From IMG/VR virus record IMGVR_UViG_3300021399_000107, positions 93,173-157,172 of that record: DNA of 64,000 nt; one strand, given 5' to 3'. How positions within the stretch are numbered: the first letter of the stretch is position 1; each line of letters starts with the position of its first letter. Origin of the DNA: a virus. Its lineage: Duplodnaviria > Heunggongvirae > Uroviricota > Caudoviricetes. The translations under genes and the position numbers were made by a program. Shown in pieces: positions 7,231 to 63,170 of this stretch. A model generated the notes under the pieces. It searched no databases. It saw nothing but the letters and a program-made list of their open reading frames with translations, and was not told where the DNA came from.

Positions 7231-7609
7231 ATATTAGGTTTCGTAGCGTTTCGCTTTCCATTAGGTCTACATATTTCTGTCTCACTTGCGGCTCTAGTCG
7301 TAAGGTAAGGAAGACAGCGAGATTAAAGGCGGCCGCATAATGAAAAGCAGTAGCTGCATCTATCCCTTGTTTCATTATGCCTTCTGCAACAGGATTGCGC
7401 GCTTGCTTACTAGTTGATGTTTCAATGCGCGCAATTTCCTGTTCATAGGCTTCAATCCAATCATCCGGCGTGGTGCCATTTATATACTTATTAATAATAT
7501 AGCGAATTAAACAATCGCCACTTGGCGTAATTGTATAGCGTCGCTTGAGATGGAAAAGACGCAAGAAAAAGCGTCCGATTTTTCTAATCAAGTTAACACA
7601 GTATTGCAT
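7199..7609 (-). CDS. hypothetical protein
   Basis: 136-aa ORF. Confidence 0.35.
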   Translation of the reverse strand: MQYCVNLIRKIGRFFLRLFHLKRRYTITPSGDCLIRYIINKYINGTTPDDWIEAYEQEIARIETSTSKQARNPVAEGIMKQGIDAATAFHYAAAFNLAVFLTLRLEPQVRQKYVDLMESETLRNLICEMYKIYDGR

Positions 7610-8058
7610 TTAGTCCTCATCCATTCGTTGGGATGTCTTACAATATCACGCATAATACAGTAGATTGGCGATTCAATATTTTCTGCGTTTGTATTAAAAA
7701 AATAGGAACAGCCGCAGAAAGTCATTAGGGAAGTAGATTGAGAATTATCAATTTGAATCACATAGATGCGCTTTTGGAGAGCGCGAGCGTACCCTTGCTC
7801 AAAATTCGTGCCTGCTGTACTATTGCGGCCCAGGCTAATAAGGATGAGCGCATCGGCTTCCAGAATGTGCGCAATATCGTTATCATAAACCTTTTGCGCC
7901 CAAATTTCTTGTGGATAATCCCATGCGTTCGGAACCTTGAACTCGAAAGGACAATAGAGGGAATCCTCTTCGCGCATAAGCTTTTCAATCGTATGTTTTA
8001 CTGTGTGCATTAAAGAACGATGTTCGCTGTCACAAGGGCCCGCAAGATAGTACTTCAT
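7588..8058 (-). CDS. nucleoside 2-deoxyribosyltransferase / dNMP N-glycosidase (NDT/DNPH1 family)-like
   Basis: N-terminal YLAGP and the GTNFEQGYA catalytic-Glu motif characteristic of the NDT/Rcl family. Confidence 0.6.
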   Translation of the reverse strand: MKYYLAGPCDSEHRSLMHTVKHTIEKLMREEDSLYCPFEFKVPNAWDYPQEIWAQKVYDNDIAHILEADALILISLGRNSTAGTNFEQGYARALQKRIYVIQIDNSQSTSLMTFCGCSYFFNTNAENIESPIYCIMRDIVRHPNEWMRTKCNTVLT

Positions 8059-9441: not shown

Positions 9442-9665
9442 TAATTTTTCCTCCCATTGGTTTCATTATACAAAAGCTCCATTTTTTCCAATAAAGCTAT
9501 TGAAGGAGAACGTGTTTTAGTAAAAATTTTAGAGATATATGAACGGCTGCATCCCAGTTGTTCCGCTATGCGCTTATGTGTCCACTTTTGTTTTTGACAA
9601 TAAAGTTTAAAATTTTGTAAAAATATTTGTTTTTCTTGTTCAAATTGCGCTGAATTAAATTGCAC
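9441..9665 (-). CDS. XRE-family HTH transcriptional regulator
   Basis: The sequence RIAEQLGCSRSYISKIF is a helix-turn-helix. Confidence 0.55.
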   Translation of the reverse strand: MQFNSAQFEQEKQIFLQNFKLYCQKQKWTHKRIAEQLGCSRSYISKIFTKTRSPSIALLEKMELLYNETNGRKN

Positions 9666-9703
9666 TTTTTGTCACCTTATTCACCATATTAACATCGCGC
9701 GTG

Positions 9704-10177
9704 TTAATATGAATTTGCAAAATATAGATTTAGTCCATTAGCTTGTAGCCGGTCATACATTTGATATAGCTGGCAAAGTCGCGGAAGACCGCTAAAGCCA
9801 TCAAAGTAATCTGAATGGAAAGCATAGAACTCAATCATAGCTTTTAGTGTCTCCTTCTTGAGACGTACTATGCCAGTATCATTATGAAACGTTTCTTGAA
9901 GCGCAGGAATGGCATCCACAAGATCATGAAACTTGCGCGCGTACCACGCATCAATAGGCTTGTCTGTGGGCAAATGAAATTGACCGTCTTCGTCATAAAA
10001 ATGCTGGTTATCTATGATTTCATCAAAATCATAATAGTCGTCATATGATTGGGCCGCAAGCATGTCATAAGATTTAGCAATATAGATATTTAAGTCCATT
10101 CCCATAATAGTTGCTCCTCTTTCTTTGATTATACGCATCAAAAATTCTACTGCGTTTGAGGCTTCCTCAAAAGTCAC
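9704..10177 (-). CDS. hypothetical protein (GTG start)
   Basis: 157 aa. The start context TCGTGACTTTTGAGGAAG is duplicated at the next gene. Confidence 0.4.
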   Translation of the reverse strand: MTFEEASNAVEFLMRIIKERGATIMGMDLNIYIAKSYDMLAAQSYDDYYDFDEIIDNQHFYDEDGQFHLPTDKPIDAWYARKFHDLVDAIPALQETFHNDTGIVRLKKETLKAMIEFYAFHSDYFDGFSGLPRLCQLYQMYDRLQANGLNLYFANSY

Positions 10178-10917: not shown

Positions 10918-12210
10918 TTAAACGGCCTTCTTTTCTTTGAGAACAAGATTTAAAAATAAGCCTACAATAATACTTAGGGCAACGCCACTAAAAGAAAAAG
11001 TTCCATAATTAATTGCTATTCCGCTGACACCACAACTTAGCATTGCGGCAAAAATTAAGCTATTTTTCATATTAGAAAAATCAACTTTATTATTCATAAT
11101 AGTACGCACGCCTGCGTTGGCAATTAATGAATAACACAGAATAGATATACCAGCAAATACACAATTAGGCATGGCCGCGACAGCGCGATTAAAAGGAGTA
11201 ATAAAGCCTAGAGCAATAAGTGTTAAAGAGGCAGTAAGGAAACACCATACACTTGCTACACCACTAACGGCGATCGTACCGGTTGCTTCACTAAAAGTTG
11301 TCGTACACTGTGAACCTGTTAAGGTGCCTACAAATGAGCTTAGGCCATCACCAAGAAGAGTACGAGGGAGTTGACTAAGCGTATCAGTTCCAGTTACAAC
11401 TCCAATAGTATTCATGTCCGCGATATGCTCTGCCAGCGCAGAACAGCTAACGACCCCGAACATTAGGATAATTTGTGGTAATGTATTCCAATGAAAAGTC
11501 GCAAAGTTGATATGTGTAAAAGTTAAATCAGGAACAGAGAATAAAGACATATTTTGGAATTGAGAGAAATCTACTAAATTAGCGACCCCGCAAACTGATA
11601 GAAGAATACATAATAGATAACCAGCGAGAGTTCCGCCTAAAAATGGTAGTGTCTGCCAGATGCCTTTTGCGTAATGCCCAATAAGACAAGTAACCAAGAC
11701 TACAAAAAAGGCGATTCCAATTCCTAATAAAGAATATTGTCCATTTACTTGCGCATAAACAGGAATAAAAGAGGTGAGTGAGATTCCTATGATAAGAACT
11801 GATGTGCCTGAGATCAACGGATTGAATAGTTTATTAATCCAATTTGTGCCATAATGTTTAACAAAAAGTGCGACAACAGCATAAATTATACACATTACTA
11901 ATCCGCCAATGACTACACCTAGAAAATTTTTATGAACGGCATCAGTAAGTGTAAGCGTAGAGACAATTGCGGCAACAGTTGCACCGCTATTACTAGTAAT
12001 CGCGCTTACTTTAAAACCAGTTACCAGTAAGAAAACAAAGGTTCCTAGTCCCGCAGAAATTAATCCTGCACTAATCGGTGTGCCGCATATTAGACTAATA
12101 AGCATTGTAGCTGGTAGTACTGACAGCACAAATTGGGCCGTATAGCCAATCCATTCCTTTAAAGTACGTGGCTTTTCGCGCACGCCATAAATTAAATTTG
12201 TATTATTCAT
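10918..12210 (-). CDS. nucleobase:cation symporter-2 (NCS2, UraA/xanthine-uracil permease family) membrane transporter
   Basis: 430 aa with about 12 predicted TM segments. AEHIADMNTIGVVTG...LPRTLLGDGLSSFVGTLTGSQCTTTFSEATGTIAVSGVASVW closely matches the UraA signature region (EHIG...GDG...G.P.TTY.ENIGV...T.V.S). Confidence 0.75.
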   Translation of the reverse strand: MNNTNLIYGVREKPRTLKEWIGYTAQFVLSVLPATMLISLICGTPISAGLISAGLGTFVFLLVTGFKVSAITSNSGATVAAIVSTLTLTDAVHKNFLGVVIGGLVMCIIYAVVALFVKHYGTNWINKLFNPLISGTSVLIIGISLTSFIPVYAQVNGQYSLLGIGIAFFVVLVTCLIGHYAKGIWQTLPFLGGTLAGYLLCILLSVCGVANLVDFSQFQNMSLFSVPDLTFTHINFATFHWNTLPQIILMFGVVSCSALAEHIADMNTIGVVTGTDTLSQLPRTLLGDGLSSFVGTLTGSQCTTTFSEATGTIAVSGVASVWCFLTASLTLIALGFITPFNRAVAAMPNCVFAGISILCYSLIANAGVRTIMNNKVDFSNMKNSLIFAAMLSCGVSGIAINYGTFSFSGVALSIIVGLFLNLVLKEKKAV

Positions 12211-12509: not shown

Positions 12510-12722
12510 TTACCACTGATGTGGTTGTTTAAGATCAATTGGATGAGTACTTGAAAATTTTATTGTGTTGCAAAAACGACAATAACATTTTCTTTTATCT
12601 TTTGTTAGATAAGAGTTCCATCTATTCATTTTGCGTTTGCAACATAAATAACTATCAACTTTAGTACGACCGCAAGGATATGGATTGTATAGAGAATAGA
12701 AAAAATGAATAATTTTATTCAT
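12510..12722 (-). CDS. small Cys-rich protein
   Basis: 70-aa ORF. Confidence 0.3.
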   Translation of the reverse strand: MNKIIHFFYSLYNPYPCGRTKVDSYLCCKRKMNRWNSYLTKDKRKCYCRFCNTIKFSSTHPIDLKQPHQW

Positions 12723-13368
12723 TCTTAAATTGCTCCTTTAAAAGAGGAATGATTTCATCAAAAGAATTGTGAAGCGTATGGTCTTCGGTCGCATATAGGC
12801 ACATTCCATAAAGCATTTGGTTGATGCTGAAACTACGTCGCCAATCCTTTTCATTTAGGTGATTAGTACGAATATCAAAATAGTGCGCATAATTTTTCTT
12901 GTTCTTTTGTCGCTCAAAAACTGCCCAAAAAATATCATACATTTCCGCCTTAAAAGGTTCAGGCTGTTGCTCTAGCGGCAGCATCCACCATGCGATACCG
13001 GCTTCGGGATGTCGCTTAAAGTATTCCTGCTTCATATTTTCCCAAAGATGTTCACAAAAATACTTCCAACCATATAGAACGCCCATTTCGCACATCGTAC
13101 CAATTGCGCTTTGTTCTGGACATATAACAGTATAATCGCTGTCCCAGAGCCTACCAATATCTGCTTCGCAGATTTTTTCAGCCAAATGATTATTCTCTTC
13201 TTCTGTCATACTGGCCTTATCATTAATAGACTTGTTCATTACCGGACTATACACTTCGCCGGGAATATTAGCAGCCTTAAACTTATCATATTCTTCTTGG
13301 CGCGCAAGGTTTTCTCCACGAGTCATGATTCCACCTGCAAGATAACCTAAAGGTCTTTTTTGCTCCAT
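12715..13368 (-). CDS. second NDT/DNPH1-family (nucleoside 2-deoxyribosyltransferase-like) protein
   Basis: GYLAGG N-terminal motif and AIGTMCEMGVLYG (GT..E.G catalytic motif), with a C-terminal extension. Start chosen at MEQKRPLGYLAGG, which has a GAGGAAAAATAGT ribosome-binding site. Confidence 0.55.
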   Translation of the reverse strand: MEQKRPLGYLAGGIMTRGENLARQEEYDKFKAANIPGEVYSPVMNKSINDKASMTEEENNHLAEKICEADIGRLWDSDYTVICPEQSAIGTMCEMGVLYGWKYFCEHLWENMKQEYFKRHPEAGIAWWMLPLEQQPEPFKAEMYDIFWAVFERQKNKKNYAHYFDIRTNHLNEKDWRRSFSINQMLYGMCLYATEDHTLHNSFDEIIPLLKEQFKNE

Positions 13369-13369
13369 A

Positions 13370-14086
13370 CTATTTTTCCTCATAATGTATAAGATTTTTT
13401 ATATAATTAATGTTTAATTGATTATATTCTTTATAAGAAATACGATATAGCGGAATATTATGTTTTTTACAATATTCATTTTTAATTTCATCTATTCCTT
13501 CTCTATACCAAGCATTGGTTTTATCGAAATGTTGTTCGCCGTCATACTCTAATAAACAAAATAATTTATGATTTTTTATAATGCCCCAATCAAATCTATA
13601 CGGGGATAATTTATCGGTAAGAAAATCTGGAAACTTATATTCTGAAATAAATTGAATGTTATTATCAGATAATATATTTGTTATTTTTCGCGCACCTTTT
13701 GACTTAATACAGCCACAGCTATTAGCTTTTCCGGCTCTTAAATCCCTTCCTGCGACAATGGTGGTATTACCGCATGAACATAAACAAAGCCAATATTTGT
13801 GATGGTCAGTGTTTTTATTTGGGTTAGGCGCTTCACTTATAACAGTTAGTTCTCCATATACATTACCGATTTCATTTATTATTCTGCCATCATTAGAATG
13901 TTTTCCACAACTGGTAGATAAGCCTTTATTATAATTTTTCTTGGAAGGACACCAATAATTTCCGCAATCACATTGACATAAATAATAATCTTTTGGATTA
14001 ACTTCTTTTTTACCACGCTTATATTGTAATATATCTTCTATTGTAGCCTCACGTATAATGATAGAATTATGTTGTTGTTTTATCAT
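13370..14086 (-). CDS. free-standing homing-endonuclease-like protein: tandem Cys4 Zn modules + C-terminal Vsr/DUF559-like PD-(D/E)XK nuclease
   Basis: Repeats of the pattern WLC.C.CGN...SCGC. C-terminal EYDGEQHF...HNIPLYRI is the E.DG..H Vsr/DUF559 motif. It is a paralog of the gene at 44715-45560. Confidence 0.5.
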   Translation of the reverse strand: MIKQQHNSIIIREATIEDILQYKRGKKEVNPKDYYLCQCDCGNYWCPSKKNYNKGLSTSCGKHSNDGRIINEIGNVYGELTVISEAPNPNKNTDHHKYWLCLCSCGNTTIVAGRDLRAGKANSCGCIKSKGARKITNILSDNNIQFISEYKFPDFLTDKLSPYRFDWGIIKNHKLFCLLEYDGEQHFDKTNAWYREGIDEIKNEYCKKHNIPLYRISYKEYNQLNINYIKNLIHYEEK

Positions 14087-17189: not shown

Positions 17190-18317
17190 TTATATAATTT
17201 TATCAAGCGTACAGTCAGCAGGATTAAGATCATCCTTACGAATGGCTTTAATGTATGGATGGCGAATAGAAACATCCAGACGAGCGTCGCTCTTCTTTGT
17301 TTGACTCACCATCATGCCGCCAATCGTAATCGGACAAAGATACCATTCTTCCTTGAAATTATCACGCATAGATAGTTTCATTTCATCAGTTAGTCCTGCT
17401 ACTTTACAAAGCGGTACAAGTTCCCCATTCTTATCGTACACGCTAGTAAAAACTGCTCCGGGATAATTATAGAAATAATTTTTAGTAACGGGAATGTATG
17501 GCTCTCCACGCTGATAGTCGCTAAAATAATTACCCATAACAAATTCGCCCGTCTTCTTGTTCTGCCAATAGGGCCAATTTGCAAGCTCTTTACCTGTGTA
17601 GTCACGCACAGGCGGTTCAAGCGATGTGATTAGACAGTCAACGTCCGAGCTAATCTCTTGCTTTACCTTACAGGTATCCCACGCGCTAGTGCGCTTATCT
17701 GGCGTGTATGGTACGCCCTTTTTATAACAGACAGCTCCTTCTCCACCACGTTCAAAAATCTTTTGGATTTCATCAAAGAATGAGTCATCCATTTCGTGGT
17801 ATTCAATACCTTTTACAAGCGGGTTATTGATACGCGCGACTACCTCAGGGATGAAAAGAACGCGCTTTTCAATTGGTTCATTAATCATATCGTGTCCATC
17901 AAGCACTAGCACATCAAAAATGCGCCACTCAAGTTTTACGTCTTTTTGACGTTCACGGGCTTTTGGGGTGAGACAGCGTGCAATCGCACCTACATCCCGA
18001 TCAATACCGCCGGGCAAATATAGCTCTCCAAGAATGACAGTTGTCCCATTTTGAAAGGCATTAAGGACAGAATCCCAAAAAAATACCTTATCTTGTAGTT
18101 CCGAGTACGTACCAGTTCCTTTAGAAATACCGCGGGTTTGCAGAGCATTTCGTTCTGAGGTAATAACGGCGCGAGTGAAATTACCATCGAATTTTTCTGA
18201 CCAAAGATACTGACCATGCGCGGCCATTTGTTCAAGTTTTAGTCGCTTTGTGGCTGCACTCATAGTAGAAGTGGGGCTCCAATACTTTTGGACTCCCATA
18301 GTAAAATAATCTGTCAT
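17190..18317 (-). CDS. ATP-dependent DNA (or RNA) ligase, nucleotidyltransferase superfamily
   Basis: Motif I KFDGN, motif III VILGELYL, motif IV EGAVCYKKG and motif V CKVK, at T7-ligase-like spacing. Confidence 0.55.
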   Translation of the reverse strand: MTDYFTMGVQKYWSPTSTMSAATKRLKLEQMAAHGQYLWSEKFDGNFTRAVITSERNALQTRGISKGTGTYSELQDKVFFWDSVLNAFQNGTTVILGELYLPGGIDRDVGAIARCLTPKARERQKDVKLEWRIFDVLVLDGHDMINEPIEKRVLFIPEVVARINNPLVKGIEYHEMDDSFFDEIQKIFERGGEGAVCYKKGVPYTPDKRTSAWDTCKVKQEISSDVDCLITSLEPPVRDYTGKELANWPYWQNKKTGEFVMGNYFSDYQRGEPYIPVTKNYFYNYPGAVFTSVYDKNGELVPLCKVAGLTDEMKLSMRDNFKEEWYLCPITIGGMMVSQTKKSDARLDVSIRHPYIKAIRKDDLNPADCTLDKII

Positions 18318-24657: not shown

Positions 24658-25119
24658 TTAAATTTCAAATTCACCAGTTTCAACCCCATGAGAACTAAGC
24701 CATTGTTGAAGAATAACGCGTTCACTACAAGGATTAGAAGGTGCTTCGTGAACTAATAGTAATAGTTGCGGCGATTCGGTAAAACCCAAATCAGTTTGGA
24801 CTTGAGCCGCAATTTGATTCATGCGAGTAATAATCTTAGGAAAGTCGAGGGATTCGAGCTGTTTACGATAAGCAATTAGAAAACTGCACTCGCCCTTGCG
24901 CGCCAAGTCAGTATTCTTTTCGCACCCTATGCAATCTTCGCATTTGGGTGCAAGAGGAGGAATACGTAACCCATTCAATACTCCTCGCTTATCTACGAAT
25001 TGATGTTGCTGTCCACAAAAATCGTGAAACCATTGTGGATCCCAAACAGCAGTAGAAAAGGCGATATGGTAGGGCCGCAAGAAGCGTACCTTGTAAAAAT
25101 AAGATGTTAAAATTTTCAT
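24658..25119 (-). CDS. hypothetical protein
   Basis: 153-aa ORF. Confidence 0.4.
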   Translation of the reverse strand: MKILTSYFYKVRFLRPYHIAFSTAVWDPQWFHDFCGQQHQFVDKRGVLNGLRIPPLAPKCEDCIGCEKNTDLARKGECSFLIAYRKQLESLDFPKIITRMNQIAAQVQTDLGFTESPQLLLLVHEAPSNPCSERVILQQWLSSHGVETGEFEI

Positions 25120-25127
25120 AAAATAAA

Positions 25128-25148
25128 AGATTCCTTACTAAATAAATG
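25128..25148. repeat. left copy of 21-bp perfect inverted repeat
   Basis: agattccttactaaataaatg is the reverse complement of 25687-25707. Confidence 0.7.
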
Positions 25149-25686
25149 TGCGCGACCTTCGTCGTACTTAATATATCCTCTAGTATTTTCAGCCAACGAG
25201 TAGTCTAGGGCTGTGCATGGGTAGCTATTCCATACATCCTAAACCAGCTTTCGCAAATCTCGTGCAAGATTGATGACTTGCAAGTTTCAGACAAATCATT
25301 CAGCAATAATAATAACAACTTATTAATTGTAAGAATCAAAGCTGCGTCTTTTGTCCTACTCCAACCGCGCACCTCACTTATATGCGATTTCTCGCTTTCA
25401 ACGACGCTAGCATCTTGTGGCTATTCCACTGTACCATTAGTTGCCACACCAATGTCTTTAGTGGATTCGGCAAGTCTCTTCAACTTGCTTTCAATTGTGA
25501 TGCCGTGAGGAACCGTGCTTTTACTTAGGGAATATACCAAGCGCCAACTCTTGACATTGGAAGTTTCTTCCTATCGCTAATACTTACGTATTTCGCGTCC
25601 GCGATTTAATAGTATCCCGTTAAATCGTATGGATGTCGTTCAAGCTGCCCAAGCAGAGTGATTAGCTCTTCTTCACTTGGCTCACC

Positions 25687-25707
25687 CATTTATTTAGTAA
25701 GGAATCT
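25687..25707. repeat. right copy of 21-bp perfect inverted repeat
   Basis: catttatttagtaaggaatct. The pair encloses a 538-bp ORF-free segment. Confidence 0.7.
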
Positions 25708-25728
25708 CTCATCCTTTCTTATGTAATA

Positions 25729-25757
25729 ATTATAACAGAATTTTTAGAAAAAGTCAA
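25729..25757 (-). promoter_or_regulatory. consensus promoter TTGACT-17-TATAAT
   Basis: ATTATA-N17-AGTCAA on the plus strand. It transcribes into the inverted-repeat-bounded ORF-free region. Confidence 0.55.
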
Positions 25758-25911
25758 ATATTGGAAGATATAGGGTTAATATTGCGTTTCATTATTTAAG
25801 CTTGACTAACTATCATGCCGTGCAACTGGGCACGATACTAAAATCCAAGCCCCTATTCTCGACATCTTCCTGCCGCCGCTAGACTTCCGTCATAGGGATA
25901 AGCAGTACCCT

Positions 25912-26062
25912 TGGTGCGCGCAGAGGAACTCGAATCCTCGACTCCATGATTAATGGTGGAGCGCCTAGGTACTACCCCTAGTTAAGATAAGCCTTGCTTC
26001 TTATCTGTGTTTTTTACACTAACGCCCCAAGTCATGTGCTCTTCCAACTGAGCTATGCGCGC
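25912..26062 (-). tRNA. tRNA-Pro(UGG)-like gene interrupted by ~75-nt insertion in anticodon loop (or disrupted pseudo-tRNA)
   Basis: On the minus strand: GCGCGCA-TA-GCTC-AGTTGGAA-GAGC-A-CATGA-CTTGGGG[75-nt insert]A-TCATG-GAGTC-GAGGA-TTCGAGT-TCCTC-TGCGCGC-A-CCA. All four arms are canonical. Only the anticodon loop is expanded. Confidence 0.4.
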
Positions 26063-26113
26063 ATATTGGTAATTTTTTACTAAGTTATTGTCATATCGGT
26101 GGTAATAAAGAAT

Positions 26114-26305
26114 TTATTTATTATTTTCTATCATACGCGAAATCTGTTTTTTAATCTCTATAATATCATCTCTCCGGACACGATCATTTGCTTCTAACGT
26201 GTCAACTCGTCTAAACAGATCATGTAGATTACTCGCTAAACTGGTAATACCTAAAGCAATAGCTAGTCCTCCAACATATGCCAGTATAGTAACTATTATC
26301 TCCAT
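26114..26305 (-). CDS. small membrane protein
   Basis: 63 aa with one TM segment. Confidence 0.3.
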   Translation of the reverse strand: MEIIVTILAYVGGLAIALGITSLASNLHDLFRRVDTLEANDRVRRDDIIEIKKQISRMIENNK

Positions 26306-26307
26306 TA

Positions 26308-26640
26308 TTAATCATCCTCGTCCATCTTAGCGCCGCAATGAGGGCAATGTTCCAGTCCGTCGTATCTCTTTCCGCTCACGTAGACATATGGCATGAATAC
26401 AATCTCGTCTTTATATCTCGCACCGCATACACTGCACATAATATTGGTTCTATCGTCAATCCACCGCCCATGTACCACTGGGGCTACATCGACAGCGGGA
26501 GCGTTTTCAATGCGGTTGTATCCAGCTAATGCCCCTATTGTATTATCTACAAATGTTTCCACGGCAGGTTTAGTGAGCTCCTTTATGAGAGCCAACTCAT
26601 TTTCTATTGGCCCATGCCAAATCTGATCGTCATTCTCCAC
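26308..26640 (-). CDS. zinc-ribbon protein
   Basis: CSVCGARY...HCPHCGAKM. Confidence 0.4.
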   Translation of the reverse strand: MENDDQIWHGPIENELALIKELTKPAVETFVDNTIGALAGYNRIENAPAVDVAPVVHGRWIDDRTNIMCSVCGARYKDEIVFMPYVYVSGKRYDGLEHCPHCGAKMDEDD

Positions 26641-26833
26641 GTCTTTCAGCCTCCTTCGGCGGCTCTGGTAACGGCATCCAATAGGTGATATTTACTCGTG
26701 TAGTTGGAGCAATCCACACCCCATCATGAAAGATTGCCGTCCCAACCACACCATAATTGATAACCAAATATTCGCATGGAATGTTGTCCGGCAATCTGTC
26801 TCTAACACTGATCCAGTCAGCCATCATCGTCAT
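26630..26833 (-). CDS. hypothetical protein
   Basis: 67-aa ORF. Confidence 0.3.
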   Translation of the reverse strand: MTMMADWISVRDRLPDNIPCEYLVINYGVVGTAIFHDGVWIAPTTRVNITYWMPLPEPPKEAERRGE

Positions 26834-27096
26834 CCTTTCCCTGGCTGAACGTCTGCCCGCATCCGCTCGTACTCTAAATAGTCAATCGCACGACATTGTT
26901 CCGTTTTACTCTCTGCACTTAAAGCATCGCGCTCGAAAAAATATCCATTACACTTAGAACAAGAATAGTCCCATGGATAGTTCATTGCTCCGTAAACACG
27001 AAACAATTTTCCGCCACACTGTGGACATTTCTTGATCAATTCCACTCTGTGACTTCTCCCTGCTCGTCTGTCGGTCTTGATGTTAAGCAGCGCCAT
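26830..27096 (-). CDS. zinc-ribbon protein
   Basis: KCPQCGGKLF...CSKCNGYF. Confidence 0.4.
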   Translation of the reverse strand: MALLNIKTDRRAGRSHRVELIKKCPQCGGKLFRVYGAMNYPWDYSCSKCNGYFFERDALSAESKTEQCRAIDYLEYERMRADVQPGKG

Positions 27097-27446
27097 GTCT
27101 TGCCGTATTGGTCTACTCGCTTCGGGAAAACGTATGTCTCTCCTTTGAAATATACATATTCATCAATTGTCGCAATATAGAACACATCTTGACATTTCGC
27201 TATTGCATTACGATCCTCATAGTAAATTGCTCGTCCACGTCCGCGCAACTCATCCAGTTCATTCAGCGTCATCACACGAGGCTCCTGGGCTTTCACCATT
27301 TCATAAGTCTCATTTATGAGATTCAATAAGCACATATGTGTTTCATCGTCGCCCTTGATATCGAACGGGCAATAGCCGCAAGTGCCCGGGTGCGTGCAGC
27401 ACTCCAGCCCTTTGATAACCTTCTCGTGATCAAATTCGCCATTCAT
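27036..27446 (-). CDS. Cys-rich hypothetical protein
   Basis: CCTHPGTCGYCPF. 136 aa. Confidence 0.4.
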   Translation of the reverse strand: MNGEFDHEKVIKGLECCTHPGTCGYCPFDIKGDDETHMCLLNLINETYEMVKAQEPRVMTLNELDELRGRGRAIYYEDRNAIAKCQDVFYIATIDEYVYFKGETYVFPKRVDQYGKTWRCLTSRPTDEQGEVTEWN

Positions 27447-51949: not shown

Positions 51950-52965
51950 TCGTATCACAACCATGGTGTTATCATAAAAGCTCTTTATCTTTTATTTCTT
52001 ATGGTTTCCCATAAGTTCGGACTATATCTTCACCCATAAGTGGGGTCGGGCACTCGTGGAGAGATTATTGGTAAATCTTCCTCACTCTCTAAGTCTCTGA
52101 GCCTTCCAAGATACCAGATTGATTATTCTCTTGGCTTGGCTGCTGGTTGGCATATTTACAAATATGGTTTTTATATTTAATTTGCCCATTATTATCTTTT
52201 AATTTTTTGGAAAAGCTAACATAGGAAAAATTATAATATTTTGCTGCGGCTTTAATGCTCGGAAATAAAATATCATCTACATATATTGATAAACTTTTTG
52301 ATGTATTTGGATTAATAAATACAGGAAAATTTTTATTTAATTCATCTTCATATCTACAAATATTTCCATAAGCATCATATCCTTTTTTACACCAACGAAT
52401 TACCGTATCTTCACAAACATGCAGTTGCCGTGCTGCTTCTAAAACTCCAATATAGCGCTGTCCGTTTATTACAACAGGACGACGCTTTTGTCCATTTACT
52501 TTTTCTGCAATTTCTGGATCTTGCATTGGATTATTTTTAGACATTCGTTCTCGTTGTTGTGATCGTTTCATTGGATTGTATTCTGATTGATATGCACGCA
52601 TAGCATCTGTCCAAACAAAGTGACAACCACCTTTTCCACCATTATCTAAACTGGCTTTTGCTTGTCCTATTTTATGATAGTATTTAATTAATGCCGCTTC
52701 TTTAGCGAAAGCGTCTTGCTCTTTGTCAAAATATTCAATAATTTCTACTTCACAATTATAGTTATTGTAGTATTTTTTAAAAATTTCATTACGACCAGCA
52801 ATTTGATGGCATCTATTCCCTGTTCCTTTTCCAATATAAAATACTTCATTTATATCTATAGCTATCCATCTATACACATAAAAAATTTTTTCTTCCATTG
52901 TAATTCTCCATATTTTATAATTTGGCTGTTCCAGCAATTCACCCGATTGCCATAGCAACTTACGC
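51950..52965 (-). mobile_element. group I intron (approximate bounds) carrying GIY-YIG homing endonuclease ORF
   Basis: On the minus strand: an R-like element GGCTCAGAGACTTAGA at 52091-52106 and an exact S element AAGATATAGTCC at about 52038-52049. These are followed by a P9-like hairpin TTATGG-GAAA-CCATAA. A P-like element GAATTGCTGGAA lies 5' of the ORF. The HEG stop codon sits inside R. Confidence 0.6.
52089..52898 (-). CDS. GIY-YIG homing endonuclease (intron-encoded)
   Basis: Start at MEEKIFYVYRW, which has a TGGAGA ribosome-binding site. GIY-YIG block YVYRW...FYIGKGTGNR and conserved SLDNGGKG. The C-terminal region is a DNA-binding repeat. Confidence 0.7.
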   Translation of the reverse strand: MEEKIFYVYRWIAIDINEVFYIGKGTGNRCHQIAGRNEIFKKYYNNYNCEVEIIEYFDKEQDAFAKEAALIKYYHKIGQAKASLDNGGKGGCHFVWTDAMRAYQSEYNPMKRSQQRERMSKNNPMQDPEIAEKVNGQKRRPVVINGQRYIGVLEAARQLHVCEDTVIRWCKKGYDAYGNICRYEDELNKNFPVFINPNTSKSLSIYVDDILFPSIKAAAKYYNFSYVSFSKKLKDNNGQIKYKNHICKYANQQPSQENNQSGILEGSET

Positions 52966-53388
52966 TGCTAAAGTGTCATTGTAGATATAACACTGATTCT
53001 GATTTGCAAGTAGCGTCATCTGATTGGTACGAACATCATTAATCTGAGAGCCGATAACCGCTTGAATATCCTTCATCACATTAATGTTATCGTACTTAGC
53101 CTGAGAAGTAGCCGCAACAGCCTGCGCAGTACCATTTGTAATGGCGGTCATGATATCACGATTCTGATCTTGTAGATCAGAGAAGTTCATGCCAGCCTGT
53201 ACAAAATCCTGCGTTGCGTATTGAGGACGATAGCCGCCGCCACCGCCAAAATTGCCAAAGCCGCCGCCAAAGAGTGCGAGGATAGCAAATAGCCAAATCA
53301 TACCGCCCCAGCCGCTACCACCAAAACTGTCATTATTGTTTCCACTGAGTAGAGCGACATCAGCAGCAGAAAGTCCATTTTCGCTCAT
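52960..53388 (-). CDS. probable 5' exon region of interrupted gene (142-aa ORF; Gly-rich membrane/structural protein)
   Basis: GGGFGNFGGGGG and a hydrophobic segment. The C-terminal residues may be read-through into the intron. Confidence 0.4.
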   Translation of the reverse strand: MSENGLSAADVALLSGNNNDSFGGSGWGGMIWLFAILALFGGGFGNFGGGGGYRPQYATQDFVQAGMNFSDLQDQNRDIMTAITNGTAQAVAATSQAKYDNINVMKDIQAVIGSQINDVRTNQMTLLANQNQCYIYNDTLAA

Positions 53389-53418
53389 AATTATTCCTCC
53401 TTAGAAAAGAAAAATTAT

Positions 53419-53455
53419 ATATATAAAAAACGTTCGTGTTTAAAACACGAACGTT
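53419..53455 (-). terminator. rho-independent terminator
   Basis: Hairpin AACGTTCGTGTTT-AAA-ACACGAACGTT followed by TTTTTTATATAT on the minus strand. Confidence 0.55.
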
Positions 53456-53781
53456 CATTGCAGAGCACGCAACACATCTTCGGGATTTACGCCCGCTTGT
53501 TGCGCTAAATAATAGAACAATTGTTGCATATTAATGCCATTAGAAGAAGCCATTTTAATTAGATTCGCTAGTGTCGGATTCTGATTTATCGCTTCTGTAA
53601 TAACTTGTTGCGGATTAGCACTCATTTTTACCGCACTCATCAGATTCCTAATTTGTTGAATCTGTGGATTCATCTGCGGCTGTTGCTGCGTTCCTTTGCT
53701 TCTTATTTGATTTTGAAACTCCAGAATTGGATTGCTTGGCATATAATTCCTCCAAGTGGCGTAGTCGACTATCAAGATCAT
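53455..53781 (-). CDS. Gln/Asn-rich hypothetical protein
   Basis: 108-aa ORF. Confidence 0.35.
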   Translation of the reverse strand: MILIVDYATWRNYMPSNPILEFQNQIRSKGTQQQPQMNPQIQQIRNLMSAVKMSANPQQVITEAINQNPTLANLIKMASSNGINMQQLFYYLAQQAGVNPEDVLRALQ

Positions 53782-54055
53782 TTAGATCAATAGGCGGCTG
53801 AGTTTGGTGCGGCTTCACGTCAAATGGCGCAACCGTTAGATAACCGGCTCCATCTGTTTGCGCAAGCCAGACAATAGCGCCCGATTCATCTAGCAGTAAG
53901 ATACTGCTATTCGCATCCATTTGAATACTGCGCGCGCCTGCTTCACCTTTAACCTTAATGATTTCATAGTGCGGCAAAATTTGATATGGTGAGCGCATAG
54001 ACATGCGTCCCATATTCATATTCATATTATTATTAATTCTATTTCCTAAGTCCAT
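53648..54055 (-). CDS. hypothetical protein (overlaps downstream ORF in another frame; one of the two may be mis-started)
   Basis: 135-aa ORF. Confidence 0.3.
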   Translation of the reverse strand: MDLGNRINNNMNMNMGRMSMRSPYQILPHYEIIKVKGEAGARSIQMDANSSILLLDESGAIVWLAQTDGAGYLTVAPFDVKPHQTQPPIDLNDLDSRLRHLEELYAKQSNSGVSKSNKKQRNAATAADESTDSTN

Positions 54056-54057
54056 AT

Positions 54058-54273
54058 TTATGCCTCATTCTTATATTTGCGACCACAATATGGACACCAC
54101 ACGCATGGCCGCATGTTGTTCGCATTATCTAGAAAAAAGAGCGGGATTTCGCGCTTCTTTTTCTGATTGTAACAGAAGCCGCATCCGATTGTTTGTGGCT
54201 CTTTCCATGAAGCATCTTTAGTAGCTTCTTCGTAGTTTTCGTATTCTTCGTATTCGTACCTAAATCGTGCCAT
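54058..54273 (-). CDS. zinc-ribbon protein
   Basis: CGFCYN...CVWCPYCG. Confidence 0.4.
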   Translation of the reverse strand: MARFRYEYEEYENYEEATKDASWKEPQTIGCGFCYNQKKKREIPLFFLDNANNMRPCVWCPYCGRKYKNEA

Positions 54274-54282
54274 AATGCTCCT

Positions 54283-54927
54283 TTATGTACCTGCGTAGTC
54301 AATAATGACTATTTTATTATTTATATAGCCGACATTCCCAAAGTGAATGTCGTCAATTTTATTTGTAGCAAGAAAATTAGATAAGCGTTCATATGCTTCA
54401 CGTCCATAATCTTCATAAAAATTATTGGCTATATCAACATAAGTGTTTAGACAAGAAGGAACGGAACGTAAATAAGAACGTCTACCTGAACGTATGTAGT
54501 GATGATGTATAGAGGAAGTACGCGCACGCGGATACGCATACAAAGGAAGCCGTATATTCTTTGCTGTATATGTTCCTAGTTGATATGGTTGCGCGAAAAA
54601 TTGTGAACAAGAAGCCTTTTCAGCCAATTTATAATTTTCGCACTCATGAAGACAATGAAAAACACTAGGCTGTAAATCAAATTTTACAACATATTCGCAC
54701 GTATCATCAATTAGACAACCTCGAAACGCGCCGCAGGCGATGTGAAGGTGAGGATTAAACAAGTCCTCACCTTCATCTTCTTCTTCAAAACTAAGTTCAT
54801 AAGGTGAAGAAAAATACTTATTCCAAAAAGATGAATTATGAATAAGCGTAGTGAGTGCGCTAGAATAGCGGTCGTAAACTTCGTTGAAATTCATCTTTAC
54901 ACTTCCTTTCATGTTTCTATTATACAC
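54283..54927 (-). CDS. hypothetical protein
   Basis: 214-aa ORF. Confidence 0.4.
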   Translation of the reverse strand: MYNRNMKGSVKMNFNEVYDRYSSALTTLIHNSSFWNKYFSSPYELSFEEEDEGEDLFNPHLHIACGAFRGCLIDDTCEYVVKFDLQPSVFHCLHECENYKLAEKASCSQFFAQPYQLGTYTAKNIRLPLYAYPRARTSSIHHHYIRSGRRSYLRSVPSCLNTYVDIANNFYEDYGREAYERLSNFLATNKIDDIHFGNVGYINNKIVIIDYAGT

Positions 54928-54947
54928 GAAAGTGCGTAAAAAGTCAA
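54919..54947 (-). promoter_or_regulatory. consensus promoter TTGACT-17-TATAAT
   Basis: ATTATA-N17-AGTCAA on the plus strand. Confidence 0.55.
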
Positions 54948-55013
54948 GTATTAAAATTACTGTTCTGTAAGATAGGTAGAAAAAATTGGTTGAAAAATGT
55001 ATATTATGCGCGC

Positions 55014-57659
55014 TTACCTTTCAACCCAACCACGATTCAAATATTGCCATCCTTTTGTATGTCCTGTTGTGTCTACCATTTGCGCGCCAAATGGAACATT
55101 AGTATCGGTAGGATATTCGGTTCCATAGGCTACACCAGAATTAAGGTATGGTGATTGTAGTGTCCATGCGCCTTCGTTGAAGCCACCTAGACGAATAGAG
55201 ATATGACTAAAAGATGGGGCATTGGTATCGGCTAATTCAAGTGGAAACTCATTAAAAGGATAGAGACAGGGATAGAACTTGATTACCATTGTGTGGTAAG
55301 TTTCGTTTCCATTCTCATCCGGTAAGTCAGGAAAGCGTTTTATCATTAGTGCGTTATGTCCCATTGGTTTTCCATAATAGTTACCTACTGTCAAAGTGCC
55401 TTCATCATTAGTGATGGGCGCGCCAATGGTACGATCATAGCCATACAAATCTTCGCGCCTAATAGTAGGTGCATCGCATAAGTAAACGATTGCGCCATCA
55501 TCTGGCCTCGTTGCACGATAGAATTTTGCTGAGCCACTATCCAATTCTCGTACTCCTTGAGAATTGTAAAGAAGACAATTCCACATGATACCCTCAACAT
55601 CGGCGTCAATTTCGACAACATAAGATGTGTTTAAGGTAAGGGTAAGAGTAGCGAAACAATACTGGTCTTGAAAAAGATCGGCTGGCATCATGCGCAGATG
55701 GGTTAGATCATCTTGATACACTCTTGGATTATAATGCTGTTTTTTGGGATTCAAAATTTCTACTCGCGGGTGGCCGCCAGTAGCTACCAAGTTGGTTGGT
55801 AATGTGAATTTCTCTTGCGGCGTAATTAGATTAAAAATTGGAACAAACTTCCAATACTTTTTGTTTCTAAATGCGCGCACATTTGATTTCTTATCTATGG
55901 TATCCCATTTCTTTGTTACCATCAGCATAGAGTCATAGGTCTCGTCGTGCGTGCGCTCGACAATATTACTTGCGGAATCGTAGTAGGCGGTTGGAATCCA
56001 ATAGCCATAGGGAAGTCCAGAATACTCAAAAGCGGATTGAGTATTAAGAATTTCGCCGCCATCCTTGTAAATAATAGCATCAAGAACGTAGTAGTATTCA
56101 ACATCATTTTCTGTGCTATATATATAACCATAAGTAATAAGTTTTTGAATCCAATCGGGCAATATGTAAGCCTTATGAGTGCCTTCTTTCCAAGTGTTAT
56201 TATTTATATCTGTTGGATCGCTGCCAGGATCACAAGTATACACACCATTTGGCACTTGCTGTACCAAACCTTCGTTATCATCGGGGTCCTCGGCTTGCAC
56301 TTTTGCCGCAATAGAATAAAAAGGATACTCGGTATTTGTTTCATTATTAGGTAAACGTTGCCTGTTCATAAGATAAGTAGTGTCACTGTCACTTGTTGGA
56401 TTAATGAAGCTAACTGTTGGCGCGCTTGTGCCTGACTTATTAATTACATATTTCCTATACTTAATTTGATCTATTAGTTCAAAATAAATGGTATCGTAAA
56501 GGAAATAATTGGGATTCAAATTTTCACCACGACAAATAAACATATTATTGCGACCATTATTAATATTAAGTGATGAAGTACTTGATTCCAATGAAACATT
56601 ATAGAAATAATTGTTATTGCTCTTGTAGTCTTTTATTTTAGACCCATACAAGAAAATATGCGACACTTGCATATCATAAAATTTGTTATCATTGGTATAA
56701 CCATAGGTGCCACCATTTATTTTTACAGAATCATAGAAAGTATGAGTTACGTCAGGCCATAGTTCTTCATCTGCTCCATTTAAAGAATGATATTTCAAAT
56801 CTTCGGGTTGTGCTTGATAATTTTCAATAGCCATTAGCTTTAATGTATTTACATAATGACCATGAATTGTATTATAAGTACATGAGCAGTCGCGCAAAAC
56901 GCTACGATCATCGCCAATAAAGTTGAGAGTGTCGATGCGGTCGAAGGTAATATCACAATGACCCATGTTAATAAAGGAAATAAATGTAGCGCGATAGATG
57001 AAAATATTGAGATATAGATATTGGCGCGCTGGGCGATCACCAATAACAACAGGAACGGCGTTTGTGTCGTCTTCAGGATCGAGTTTAGTTGTCTTTGCTC
57101 GCCATGCGCTTGAGGTCGCGTCATCTAAATCGTATTTAAACACAAGCCCAAGATTTTCAAACGTACTATTTAAATTTATACTTTTAGGAAAATTTTCAGC
57201 AGGCGTTGGAACTAATAGATCACCAACATAAGTTGATGTTAAATTTGTAGAACGTAGTGTAATTAAATATGGTGCATTTGTGCCGCTATATGTAAAAACA
57301 TCACTATTACTTGTCCAGTTTAATTTATGCTGACAACAATAGCGAAAACTATTTTGTACAATAGATTCAAATTTTTGCGCGCCTGCGTCTTCTGTAAGAA
57401 CAGAAGGCAGTCCACCAAAGGATTCAATACTTATGTCGGTAGATGGAACAATTTCTACGGAATATGAACCTACGTTAGATTGCCCATTAGCACTAAAGTA
57501 ATTTATGGGTAGCTCTTCTTGCGGCTCCTCGATAATACGATAACGAGCTTGCCCGCCATCATTAACCTCCCTAAATCCTAGGGTTGAAAAAATGGTTCCA
57601 ATCGGTAGCGTTGGTTCGTTTACAATACCCAGTAGTGTATCAAAAAGTTGTTCTTGCAT
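55014..57659 (-). CDS. large structural protein (tail spike/baseplate-like, 882 aa)
   Basis: Start at MQEQLFDTLL with an AGGTGAGAAT ribosome-binding site. Tyr/Asn/Thr-rich, beta-rich composition. Confidence 0.45.
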   Translation of the reverse strand: MQEQLFDTLLGIVNEPTLPIGTIFSTLGFREVNDGGQARYRIIEEPQEELPINYFSANGQSNVGSYSVEIVPSTDISIESFGGLPSVLTEDAGAQKFESIVQNSFRYCCQHKLNWTSNSDVFTYSGTNAPYLITLRSTNLTSTYVGDLLVPTPAENFPKSINLNSTFENLGLVFKYDLDDATSSAWRAKTTKLDPEDDTNAVPVVIGDRPARQYLYLNIFIYRATFISFINMGHCDITFDRIDTLNFIGDDRSVLRDCSCTYNTIHGHYVNTLKLMAIENYQAQPEDLKYHSLNGADEELWPDVTHTFYDSVKINGGTYGYTNDNKFYDMQVSHIFLYGSKIKDYKSNNNYFYNVSLESSTSSLNINNGRNNMFICRGENLNPNYFLYDTIYFELIDQIKYRKYVINKSGTSAPTVSFINPTSDSDTTYLMNRQRLPNNETNTEYPFYSIAAKVQAEDPDDNEGLVQQVPNGVYTCDPGSDPTDINNNTWKEGTHKAYILPDWIQKLITYGYIYSTENDVEYYYVLDAIIYKDGGEILNTQSAFEYSGLPYGYWIPTAYYDSASNIVERTHDETYDSMLMVTKKWDTIDKKSNVRAFRNKKYWKFVPIFNLITPQEKFTLPTNLVATGGHPRVEILNPKKQHYNPRVYQDDLTHLRMMPADLFQDQYCFATLTLTLNTSYVVEIDADVEGIMWNCLLYNSQGVRELDSGSAKFYRATRPDDGAIVYLCDAPTIRREDLYGYDRTIGAPITNDEGTLTVGNYYGKPMGHNALMIKRFPDLPDENGNETYHTMVIKFYPCLYPFNEFPLELADTNAPSFSHISIRLGGFNEGAWTLQSPYLNSGVAYGTEYPTDTNVPFGAQMVDTTGHTKGWQYLNRGWVER

Positions 57660-57663
57660 ATTC

Positions 57664-58749: not shown

Positions 58750-58825
58750 TTTATCATCTCCTTGTGCGCATATAGCGCTCTAACAGGTAAGTGGCTACCT
58801 TTCATTAAATTACTTATGCTTTTTG

Positions 58826-58858
58826 CATAAAAGAAAGGAACCTTATTCAGGTTCCTTC
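58826..58858 (-). terminator. rho-independent terminator
   Basis: Hairpin AAGGAACC-N7-GGTTCCTT followed by TCTTTTATG on the minus strand. Confidence 0.5.
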
Positions 58859-59361
58859 CCAATCTTATTTTCAATATTTCTTTGTAGCGACTCTTCTTCA
58901 TTGGCAATTCTATTACAGGCGCTGTCAGCAATATCAGCAACCTGATTCAGCCAATTAAATTCGCTTTCAAAAAACACATTAAGAGCGCGCACCCAAGCCT
59001 TGTCCATCTTGCGCTTCATGCGGGCAAATGCGATTTGCGCACCAATCTTTTCATCCCATTGGTCGTGAATAGAACATCTTGCAATACCCTTAAAATAATC
59101 AGGCATATAACATCCAGTAACGCCGCGATAGAGATCATAACGTCCAGATGTGTCATGCCTCTCATTATAATGATTAAGAAAATCTTGCGCCATATATTTC
59201 GTTCCTTCACAAATACACACTACCGTGCGCGTTTGCTCATTCACAAAAAAGTTACAATCATTCATCTTAATTTGCGTTGGCTTCATACAGCTTTTGTTCA
59301 TTCTTGCCGTTCTCCTTCCAAAAATTACGAATTTTATGTAAAAATAAACCACAAGGGTCAA
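58843..59361 (-). CDS. hypothetical protein
   Basis: 172-aa ORF. Confidence 0.4.
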   Translation of the reverse strand: MTLVVYFYIKFVIFGRRTARMNKSCMKPTQIKMNDCNFFVNEQTRTVVCICEGTKYMAQDFLNHYNERHDTSGRYDLYRGVTGCYMPDYFKGIARCSIHDQWDEKIGAQIAFARMKRKMDKAWVRALNVFFESEFNWLNQVADIADSACNRIANEEESLQRNIENKIGKEPE

Positions 59362-60173: not shown

Positions 60174-60191
60174 ATAGTCCTCCGATATGAA

Positions 60192-60440: not shown

Positions 60441-60462
60441 TGTTTTGTCCTTTCATAATTCT

Positions 60463-60491
60463 ATTATAGCAGAAAAGAGAGGAAAAGTCAA
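60463..60491 (-). promoter_or_regulatory. consensus promoter TTGACT-17-TATAAT
   Basis: ATTATA-N17-AGTCAA on the plus strand. Confidence 0.55.
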
Positions 60492-61068: not shown

Positions 61069-61073
61069 AAACT

Positions 61074-61966: not shown

Positions 61967-62029
61967 TTTATTAACTCCTTAATATCAATTTACTGATTTC
62001 TTCTATTACTTTTTCCTTTTTCTATATCT

Positions 62030-63155: not shown

Positions 63156-63170
63156 ATAAATCTCCTTTAT

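Follow-up and report, generated by a model that had tools for sequence, protein, structure and literature searches.

A phage tRNA-Lys gene with a tmRNA-like cloverleaf nested in its anticodon loop

Interrupted tRNA genes are already on record from megaphages and jumbo phages. The introns of Lak megaphage tRNAs were called enigmatic, with the remark that they 'may encode a tRNA' (PMC6784885), and a similar remark is made for jumbo phages in a 2026 survey (PMC13037316). Phage tRNA introns have thus stood as enigmatic since 2019, their boundaries, family and mechanism all being undefined. A second group that bears on the present case is that of reduced transfer-messenger RNAs (tmRNAs). Mycobacteriophage DS6A has a tag-less tmRNA that consists of the tRNA-like domain (TLD) only, some organelles have tmRNAs of ~65 nt that lack a coding sequence, and a molecule of the TLD-only kind inhibits tmRNA, perhaps by titration of SmpB (PMC4131195, PMC11915505). 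Here we describe a 151-nt gene in a 64,000-nt stretch of a Caudoviricetes genome (IMG/VR record IMGVR_UViG_3300021399_000107, positions 93,173 to 157,172; called the window throughout), in which the anticodon of a predicted tRNA-Lys(UUU) is interrupted by a 75-nt cloverleaf with features of the tmRNA TLD. That this one gene holds two nested RNAs, with the anatomy and the exact boundaries given below, is a conclusion in which we have high confidence.

A lysine tRNA gene split within its anticodon

The composite gene and the two halves of the outer tRNA lie in the window as follows.

26062..25912, minus strand: composite gene of 151 nt, tRNA-Lys(UUU) plus the 75-nt nested element, with encoded CCA
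26029..26062, minus strand: 5' exon, tRNA-Lys positions 1-34 (acceptor 5' strand, D-arm, anticodon stem 5' strand, loop C32 U33 U34)
25912..25953, minus strand: 3' exon, tRNA-Lys positions 35-76 (U35 U36 A37 A38 onward, with the anticodon stem 3' strand, variable loop, T-arm, acceptor 3' strand, A73 and CCA)

Rfam detects the gene as a tRNA (RF00005) at 52.6 bits (gathering score 29; E 1.9e-8 over the whole window), in an alignment that carries a 78-nt local insertion within the anticodon loop; ARAGORN in its default mode overlooks it. The stems can be read directly. An acceptor stem of GCGCGCA paired with UGCGCGC is followed by U8 and A9, a D-arm GCUC-AGUUGGAA-GAGC, an anticodon stem of CAUGA with UCAUG, the variable loop GAGUC and a T-arm GAGGA-UUCGAGU-UCCUC, after which come A73 and the encoded CCA, and all the features that place an RNA among the tRNAs are present (the cloverleaf, the 7-bp acceptor, the D-, anticodon and T-arms, the conserved U8, a D-loop of the G18G19 type and a T-loop of the TψC type). 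Against a norm of 76 nt, the 151 nt of the gene leave 75 nt for the insert. The 151-nt RNA folds with -56.9 kcal/mol (z = -4.9, a value equalled by none of 200 dinucleotide shuffles), and the double cloverleaf lies no more than 3 kcal/mol from the minimum free energy (MFE). The insert occurs in the window as a single copy, and a miniature inverted-repeat transposable element (MITE) or other repeat was rejected on this ground. Considering the Rfam score, the fold z-score and the uniqueness within the window, a canonical tRNA with 75 extra bases in its anticodon loop is real and no chance pattern. The first-pass annotation of this DNA, which had recognised a tRNA-like gene at 25912-26062 by its acceptor stem, D-arm, T-arm and anticodon stem and had noted a structured 75-nt insert in the anticodon loop, was right in both respects.

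The cloverleaf alone cannot place the 75-nt deletion within CUUGGGG...CCAUUAA, and the anticodon becomes UUU, UGU or UGG according to the cut. ARAGORN run with introns allowed (-i) chooses 35/36 and calls a tRNA-Thr, a boundary that we rejected in favour of the one based on homologues. The first of these is an uninterrupted tRNA-Lys(UUU) on IMG/VR contig L001 (11757-11830), in which 27 nt of the 5' half are identical to the window gene and which runs on as ...CATGACTT/TTAATCATGG..., the slash here and below marking the junction. Since the insert starts with G and ends with A, the gap relative to this gene can be placed in one way only, after U34, and the insert-bearing homologues described in the next section also fix the junction between U34 and U35. 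The loop halves CUU/UUAA join to give the 7-nt loop CUUUUAA with the anticodon UUU, and ARAGORN returns a 76-nt tRNA-Lys(ttt) after excision of 26028..25954. As a control of the isotype, the spliced sequence was given a Lys, a Pro or a Thr loop, and each version was blasted against ~50,000 phage genomes. The Lys-loop version matched 320 records, the best 40 full-length matches all being annotated tRNA-Lys; with the Pro loop the best full-length matches were still tRNA-Lys, no tRNA-Pro occurring among the matches listed, and with the Thr loop the best matches were tRNA-Lys once more. On the grounds of its sequence, the gene is a tRNA-Lys(UUU) split between U34 and U35.

It may be added that ordinary finders return either nothing or tRNA-Thr for this split tRNA and that the eye reads tRNA-Pro, the actual isotype being Lys. 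In practical terms, the usual tRNA finders overlook such genes or give them the wrong isotype.

The first-pass annotation had read the gene as a tRNA-Pro, in which the loop CTTGGGG is followed by the insert and then by A38 (a 37/38 junction, with the anticodon UGG), and had likened this position to that of archaeal and eukaryotic tRNA introns. The corresponding explanation would be a tRNA-Pro(UGG) with an intron of the archaeal/eukaryotic type that a splicing endonuclease would excise. A Pro loop can be made out in the letters CUUGGG, but the body of the tRNA still matches tRNA-Lys when it is given a Pro loop, the uninterrupted gene and the insert-bearing homologues put the junction at 34/35, and the analogy with these introns fails because the insert lies there rather than at 37/38. 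Furthermore, no bulge-helix-bulge (BHB) motif can be drawn at the junctions U34/G and A/U35, of which the 5' one abuts a helix of 7-8 bp and the 3' one lies in an 8-nt single strand, ACCA/UUAA, and no EndA/Sen-like or RtcB-like gene is found among the ~50 scanned open reading frames (ORFs) of the window or in its annotated flanks. We therefore regard the tRNA-Pro reading as scarcely credible. What does stand is the earlier remark that the insert is far too small for a group I intron: its 75 nt hold no P3-P9 core (>200 nt), and Rfam scans, including one of the insert alone, report no intron or ribozyme family even at E<=10.

The nested element and its relatives

The first-pass annotation missed that the insert forms, by prediction, a perfect cloverleaf of its own, the parts of which are these.

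25954..26028, minus strand: nested 75-nt cloverleaf, MFE of the element alone -26.9 kcal/mol
25954..25964, minus strand: inner acceptor 3' strand GCGCUCC, discriminator A and CCA, pairing with GGGGCGU at 26022-26028
25965..25981, minus strand: inner T-like arm, a 5-bp stem with the 7-nt loop GGUAGUA, of tmRNA type and not the tRNA-type UUCRANY

Starting at the 5' end, the acceptor strand GGGGCGU is followed by UA and a 4-bp hairpin, GUGU-AAAAA-ACAC; the middle is taken up by a 7-bp hairpin, AGAUAAG-AAGCAAGG-CUUAUCU, and then UAA; and the 3' part consists of the arm CUAGG-GGUAGUA-CCUAG, the acceptor strand GCGCUCC, A73 and CCA. The inner 7-bp acceptor stem contains G1-C72, G2-C71, G3·U70 and G4-C69, in addition to A73. 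An acceptor set of the G3·U70 type together with A73 is the alanine identity common to tRNA-Ala and tmRNA. In its predicted fold, the insert is a tRNA-like cloverleaf that ends in ACCA and combines alanine identity with a T-arm of the tmRNA type; ARAGORN makes no tRNA call on the insert alone.

The likeness to tmRNA is borne out by several searches. Against Rfam, the insert alone has one match, to positions 92-125 of alpha_tmRNA (T-arm, acceptor 3' strand and ACCA), at 11.7 bits and with an E of 0.027 in a small search, which is weak by itself; Rfam reports only the best of overlapping families of the tRNA clan. A metagenome scan for the 3' motif GGGGTAGTACC-N6-YTCCACCA found 33 loci, and 16 of the 20 that were scanned with Rfam hold full-length standard tmRNAs (RF00023, 53-111 bits) ending exactly at the motif, so that a 25-nt 3' motif, GGGGTAGTACC-N6-CTCCACCA, is common to the nested element and 16 RF00023 tmRNAs. 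With a looser pattern at least 120 viral contigs were matched, and for 72 of 119 ARAGORN called permuted tmRNAs whose tags read ...ALAA. A covariance model built on the insert, R1, scores the insert itself at 93.4 bits (its only copy in the window), tmRNA 3' ends at 15-29 bits and the two ordinary tRNAs of the window at 8-11 bits, a comparison of tmRNA with tRNA that is partly circular because the tmRNA loci had been gathered by their T-loop motif.

The insert thus has an alanine-type acceptor, for which charging is predicted from the sequence, and a tmRNA-type T-arm that adjoins the acceptor 3' strand. It has no mRNA-like or tag region, no resume codon and no pseudoknots, the middle arm being a closed 7-bp hairpin, and ARAGORN -m reports no tmRNA. 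We take it that the insert is not a tmRNA proper and is instead a relative or mimic of the size of a TLD, which may be derived from, or converging on, the TLD of tmRNA. As for the tmRNAs on the matched IMG/VR contigs (L003-L121), their alpha-type permuted (two-piece) acceptor pieces follow TTGACA...TATAAATA promoters.

Nested elements of the same kind were found at seven further loci, all from phage or metagenome contigs.

L131: outer tRNA-Lys, CUU/.../UUAA, inner element of 73 nt
L146, L148, L152: outer tRNA-Thr(UGU), CUU/.../GUAA, inner element of 75 nt
L126, L155: outer CUA suppressor tRNA, CUCU/.../AAA (35/36), inner element of 75 nt; L155 is from a 239-kb viral contig
L249, a 169-kb viral contig: outer tRNA-Lys, CUU/.../UUAA, divergent inner element of 70 nt with the same GGGG...CUCC-A-CCA ends

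In each of the eight composite genes, i.e., the window's and those of the seven loci, ARAGORN accepts as a tRNA what remains once GGGG...CCA is precisely excised, the anticodon loop then having 7 nt. A U stands directly before the inner G1 in all cases, and ACCA ends every inner element. There is also a free-standing 72-nt relative that lies outside any tRNA on a 50-kb viral contig (L002, 7553-7624; 31.6 bits with R1). It reads GGGGAAU...ACGG-GGUAGUA-CCGU-U-AUUCUCC-A-CCA and shares the G3·U70 pair.

Covariation was assessed on an alignment of six composite genes. Pairing holds in 85% of the cells versus 71% after shuffling (0 of 500 shuffles reach 85%) and 37-49% in slid controls, and 21 pairs are altered on both sides. 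Pairing in the inner acceptor helix reaches 97.6%, with compensatory changes at three pairs, while G1-C72, G2-C71, G3·U70 and G4-C69 are unchanged in all six genes; five further compensatory pairs fall in the inner middle hairpin and two in the inner T-arm. The outer acceptor, anticodon and T helices covary as well, and all outer helices are kept by compensatory changes when the window gene is compared with that of L131. Small as the sample is, the outer tRNA looks to be under selection as a folded RNA, and so does the inner element.

This pattern bears on the idea that the insert is a new small self-cleaving or self-splicing ribozyme, which would leave the anticodon loop without the help of a protein. 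The insert is indeed highly structured, with a four-way junction, and phage tRNA regions are known to carry ribozymes. However, the insert matches no ribozyme or intron family, what is conserved in it is a tRNA/tmRNA acceptor-T minihelix (G3·U70, ACCA and T-arm) with no catalytic core, and the middle hairpin varies freely, all of which makes a ribozyme very improbable.

Other searches for relatives had the following outcome. The 14-mer CTCCACCATTAATC matched at least 120 viral contigs, among which only L249 holds a real nested element; a contig scan with a D-hairpin pattern gave 13 chance matches and no real element, and an over-specific gapped pattern gave no matches. A megablast of window 25000-27000 against INPHARED found no match, and a distant blastn of the gene returned generic tRNA 5' halves only. 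For the neighbouring proteins of 153 aa and 966 aa no relatives were found in IMG/VR, and the latter has no homologue but itself among 5.8 billion proteins.

Several of these contigs show features that are worth recording in their own right. The CUA (amber) suppressor genes, at L126 1823-1970 and L155 ~1954-2100, encode a tRNA whose own T-loop is tmRNA-like (CAGGG-GGCGGUA-CCCUG) and which is without an encoded CCA; the suppressor suggests that its 239-kb contig belongs to a stop-codon-recoded jumbo phage. At L146 4539-5378, inside the tRNA cluster that holds the split tRNA-Thr, there is a gene for a Thg1-like protein (tRNA-His guanylyltransferase / 3'-5' polymerase family, PF04446, E 1e-26), i.e., another tRNA-end repair activity beside a nested element. 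GIY-YIG and PD-(D/E)XK-NUMOD1 homing-endonuclease-like genes stand among the tRNA genes of L249 (5072-5800 and 6405-7079). Finally, L001 has two tandem over-long tRNA genes of 135 and 125 nt (9598-9732 and 9737-9861; Rfam tRNA 46 and 42 bits) with anticodon-region inserts of ~55-60 nt, which are unrelated to the tmRNA-like element and lack the GGGG...CCA frame; the boundaries and isotypes that ARAGORN gives for them (Stop-UUA, Ser-GGA) are unreliable.

Excision, resealing and rival readings

The genome can be followed 8.1 kb further on a contig, L172, that is 100% identical to window 52082-64000, and this extension carries two adjacent genes of RNA repair.

L172 4533-5660 (window ~66457-67584), minus strand: Rnl1-family RNA ligase, 375 aa (PF09511, 52.9 bits, cutoff 28.3)
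L172 5681-6574 (window ~65543-66436), minus strand: polynucleotide kinase, 297 aa, beside the ligase (AAA_33, 83.7 bits)

The ligase lies ~2.5-3.6 kb beyond the window edge, and its best matches in the Protein Data Bank (PDB) are the T4 Rnl1 structures 2c5u, 5tt6 and 9do4. The best PDB matches of the kinase are the kinase domain of C. thermocellum Pnkp (CthPnkp), Pnkp1 and T4 Pnk; its C-terminal half gives a weak HD match only (E 0.0095), which leaves a 3'-phosphatase module in doubt. An Rnl1-family ligase and a 5'-kinase together in the same genome constitute an RNA repair cassette of the T4 type. An ATP-dependent ligase at window 17190-18317 was rejected as the splicing ligase, being a DNA ligase (PF01068, phrog_114). 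Beside the ligase/kinase pair there is also a GIY-YIG/HTH homing-endonuclease-like gene (L172 3636-4208).

The anatomy suggests a concrete splicing pathway and a second function for the insert, which might proceed as follows. The 151-nt transcript would fold into the double cloverleaf, and host RNase P could read the inner acceptor/T-arm minihelix as a pre-tRNA and cut at U34/G1, leaving U34 with a 3'-OH. A cut at this position would be expected from a minihelix of 7 + 5 bp (12 stacked) with a U at -1 and a 3' ACCA. Were an endonuclease to cut right behind the inner CCA, a 75-nt RNA with an end open to charging would come free, and the tRNA-Lys, nicked at 34/35, would be held together by its acceptor and anticodon stems. 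T4 Rnl1 acts naturally on a 3'-OH/5'-P nick in the anticodon loop of tRNA-Lys, other ends being healed by Pnk. In the same manner, the phage polynucleotide kinase may heal the ends of the nick if needed and the ligase of the T4 Rnl1 type may seal it. The freed 75-nt RNA is predicted to be charged by alanyl-tRNA synthetase (AlaRS) and could be a tag-less mini-tmRNA or a tRNA-Ala mimic; if the TLD-only tmRNA is a guide, it might titrate SmpB and thereby damp host trans-translation. No SmpB gene was seen in the scanned ORFs of the window or its flanks. Phage tRNA-Lys genes counter defences that cleave tRNA-Lys, such as PrrC and PARIS, and a joint tRNA-Lys/anti-rescue gene would be coherent for this reason, though this is speculation.

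We give the full excise-and-reseal mechanism slightly less than an even chance. Its most specific form, a protein-dependent tRNA splicing by the phage in which RNase P and a 3' endonuclease excise, Pnk/Rnl1 seal, and the products are an alanylated anti-rescue mini-tmRNA and a tRNA-Lys of the type with which phages make good the loss of host tRNA-Lys to anticodon nucleases, is possible but on the unlikely side.

A number of points weigh against this pathway. It is only the anatomy that can be read off directly, every processing step being inferred, and the family comprises only about five independent lineages, a small sample. We know of no enzyme that cuts exactly after an inner encoded CCA; hosts of the Firmicutes type trim CCA-containing precursors by exonucleases, and RNase Z avoids CCA. 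U34 can pair with the inner A73 to make an 8-bp stem, which could shift the cleavage by RNase P. The insert lacks the UCGAC...GGAC elbow motifs of the tmRNAs examined, having the GUGU-AAAAA-ACAC hairpin instead, and SmpB binding is uncertain on that account. Pnk/Rnl1 cassettes are, moreover, frequent in large phages without split tRNAs, and the presence of one here is supportive at most.

The question of the 3' cut does not arise if the composite RNA is a scaffold that is never spliced. The outer tRNA-Lys would then never decode and would serve as a stable, processable cloverleaf that presents the tmRNA-like module, the end product being either the 151-nt chimera or, after a single cut by RNase P, a base-paired two-piece RNA like two-piece tmRNA. 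The inner element is the most conserved part of the composite genes and is free-standing in L002, which would suit this explanation, as would the stability in bacteria of engineered tRNA scaffolds with anticodon-arm inserts and the frequency in phage contigs of two-piece tmRNAs made by tRNA-processing enzymes. Yet a scaffold would have no need of the canonical 7-nt loop sum, the U33 and the purine at 37 that are kept across three isotypes and five lineages (CUU/UUAA, CUU/GUAA, CUCU/AAA). Nor could the inner CCA be aminoacylated unless it were released, and the invariant alanine identity set would then be pointless; in addition, the genome encodes an anticodon-loop ligase. We consider a pure scaffold rather unlikely, whichever of its two end products is assumed.

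The distribution of the elements raises a different explanation, a selfish mobile insertion. Here the module would move among the anticodon loops of phage tRNAs, inactivating the tRNA gene or being tolerated by it, and would spread by an RNA-level reverse reaction or by recombination, possibly aided by homing endonucleases in the tRNA clusters. Presence/absence polymorphism is seen in the intact tRNA-Lys of L001 with its identical 5' half and in the intron-plus and intron-minus alleles of Lak phages; closely similar modules occur in three different isotypes; and the tRNA clusters concerned hold GIY-YIG and PD-(D/E)XK-NUMOD1 endonuclease genes. The compensatory changes that keep the outer helices between the window and L131, however, are not those of a decaying pseudogene, and the covariation of the inner helices with an invariant alanine identity set argues for selection on RNA function. 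Improbable as we find both the selfish reading and the routes of spread it supposes, mobility and function of the insert are compatible and not mutually exclusive. The 'processed insert' that the first-pass annotation had listed among its options remains a live reading.

Two further features adjoin the split tRNA on its downstream side.

25134..25704, minus strand: ROOL RNA (RF03087, 303.6 bits, full length 1-574), 207 nt downstream of the split tRNA
25757..25729, minus strand: near-consensus extended -10 promoter-like site of the ROOL RNA, TTGACT-17-TG-TATAAT

ROOL RNAs occur near tRNAs in phages (PMC5737381). No ROOL is present at the other nested-tRNA loci, and its adjacency is therefore probably outside the mechanism. 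Two ordinary tRNAs, Ile-UAU and Gly-UCC, are encoded 8 kb upstream of the split tRNA. All genes of the window are on the minus strand, among them those for GyrB, PhoH, ClpP, RNase H, a DNA ligase, Dam-type methylases, a tail protein and cell-wall hydrolases, and the window sequence is found within gut-type metagenome scaffolds of 107 kb and 58 kb.

A run of small ORFs of 63-136 aa, several of them CxxC-rich, occupies window 26114-27446 (minus strand), directly upstream of the split tRNA; they have no family match beyond PHROGs of unknown function. A 357-aa homologue of adenylosuccinate synthetase is encoded at window 62082-63155 (minus strand; PF00709, E 3e-15), the family to which PurZ of the 2-aminoadenine (Z-base) phages belongs. 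Its neighbourhood also holds genes for a dCMP deaminase (L172 1180-1605), for an isochorismatase and for a protein with a NADAR domain. Two homologues of nucleoside 2-deoxyribosyltransferase (7588-8058 and 12715-13383) and a permease of the xanthine/uracil family (10918-12210; PF00860, E 2e-43), all on the minus strand, form a nucleobase-salvage set that is unusual for a virus.

Comparison with known systems

Interrupted phage tRNAs with tRNA-like inserts are already known, their mechanism being unexplained, and the window element differs from the Lak type. The window locus and its relatives supply exact boundaries, at 34/35 and, in the suppressor, at 35/36, and the nested element is now defined by its alanine-identity acceptor, its ACCA and its tmRNA-type T-arm, with a candidate ligase in the same genome. 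In the literature we found no paper that defines a tmRNA-like nested element of alanine identity, a 34/35 boundary or a link to Rnl1/Pnk. If the proposed pathway is true, it would be a third route of tRNA splicing beside self-splicing and the BHB endonuclease plus ligase, the Pnk/Rnl1 cassette of the T4 type would serve maturation besides repair, and phage tRNA supply, RNA repair and trans-translation would be linked.

The closest counterparts in architecture are the introns of Lak and jumbo phages, which are likewise tRNA-like inserts in the anticodon loop, of ~80-115 nt (PMC6784885; PMC13037316). As in the window's family, the Lak tRNAs have alleles with and without the insert, and the splice point that a tool predicts for them is off by at least one base (PMC6784885). 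The Lak introns listed in Table S6 consist of a 5' hairpin and a nested tRNA-like element with a AAAUUAAA spacer between them; the T-loop of the nested element is a canonical GGTTCGAATCC, and the junction is predicted at 37/38 (PMC6784885). The nested element of the window, in contrast, abuts both exons at 34/35 and has alanine identity, an encoded ACCA and a tmRNA-type T-arm. Table S6 contains 0 matches for GTGTAAAAAACA or TCCACCA, and no sequence homology with the window element was found there; what the two share is that the anticodon loop of a phage tRNA houses a tRNA-like element.

With respect to the element itself, the tmRNA of DS6A is similar in being a phage RNA of barely more than a TLD, with a G3·U70 acceptor, CCA and no tag frame. 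In contrast to the window element, no description places it inside the gene of another tRNA. A simple acceptor-stem search of the record did not locate the DS6A TLD, and the likeness is a functional analogy and not a tested homology. Compared with the tmRNAs examined, which have the elbow motifs, the window element has a true 4-bp D-like hairpin. Permuted (two-piece) tmRNA genes, which are abundant on viral contigs, offer a parallel for the proposed processing, since their acceptor/T-arm pieces are freed from a longer precursor by tRNA-processing enzymes; they differ in having a tag frame and pseudoknots and in not lying inside a tRNA.

As regards the interruption, the group I introns of bacteria and the BHB introns of archaea and eukaryotes also fall in the anticodon loop of tRNAs, whereas the insert of the window, at 75 nt, has neither a group I core nor a BHB motif and stands at 34/35. 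A parallel for the outer tRNA is the PrrC/Pnkp/Rnl1 system of T4, in which a tRNA-Lys(UUU) is likewise broken in the anticodon loop beside the wobble base; the phage described here has its own Rnl1-family ligase next to a polynucleotide kinase. In T4 the break is made at 33/34 in a host tRNA by a host defence nuclease, whereas the break proposed here, at 34/35, would be made by tRNA-processing enzymes in the product of the phage's own gene.

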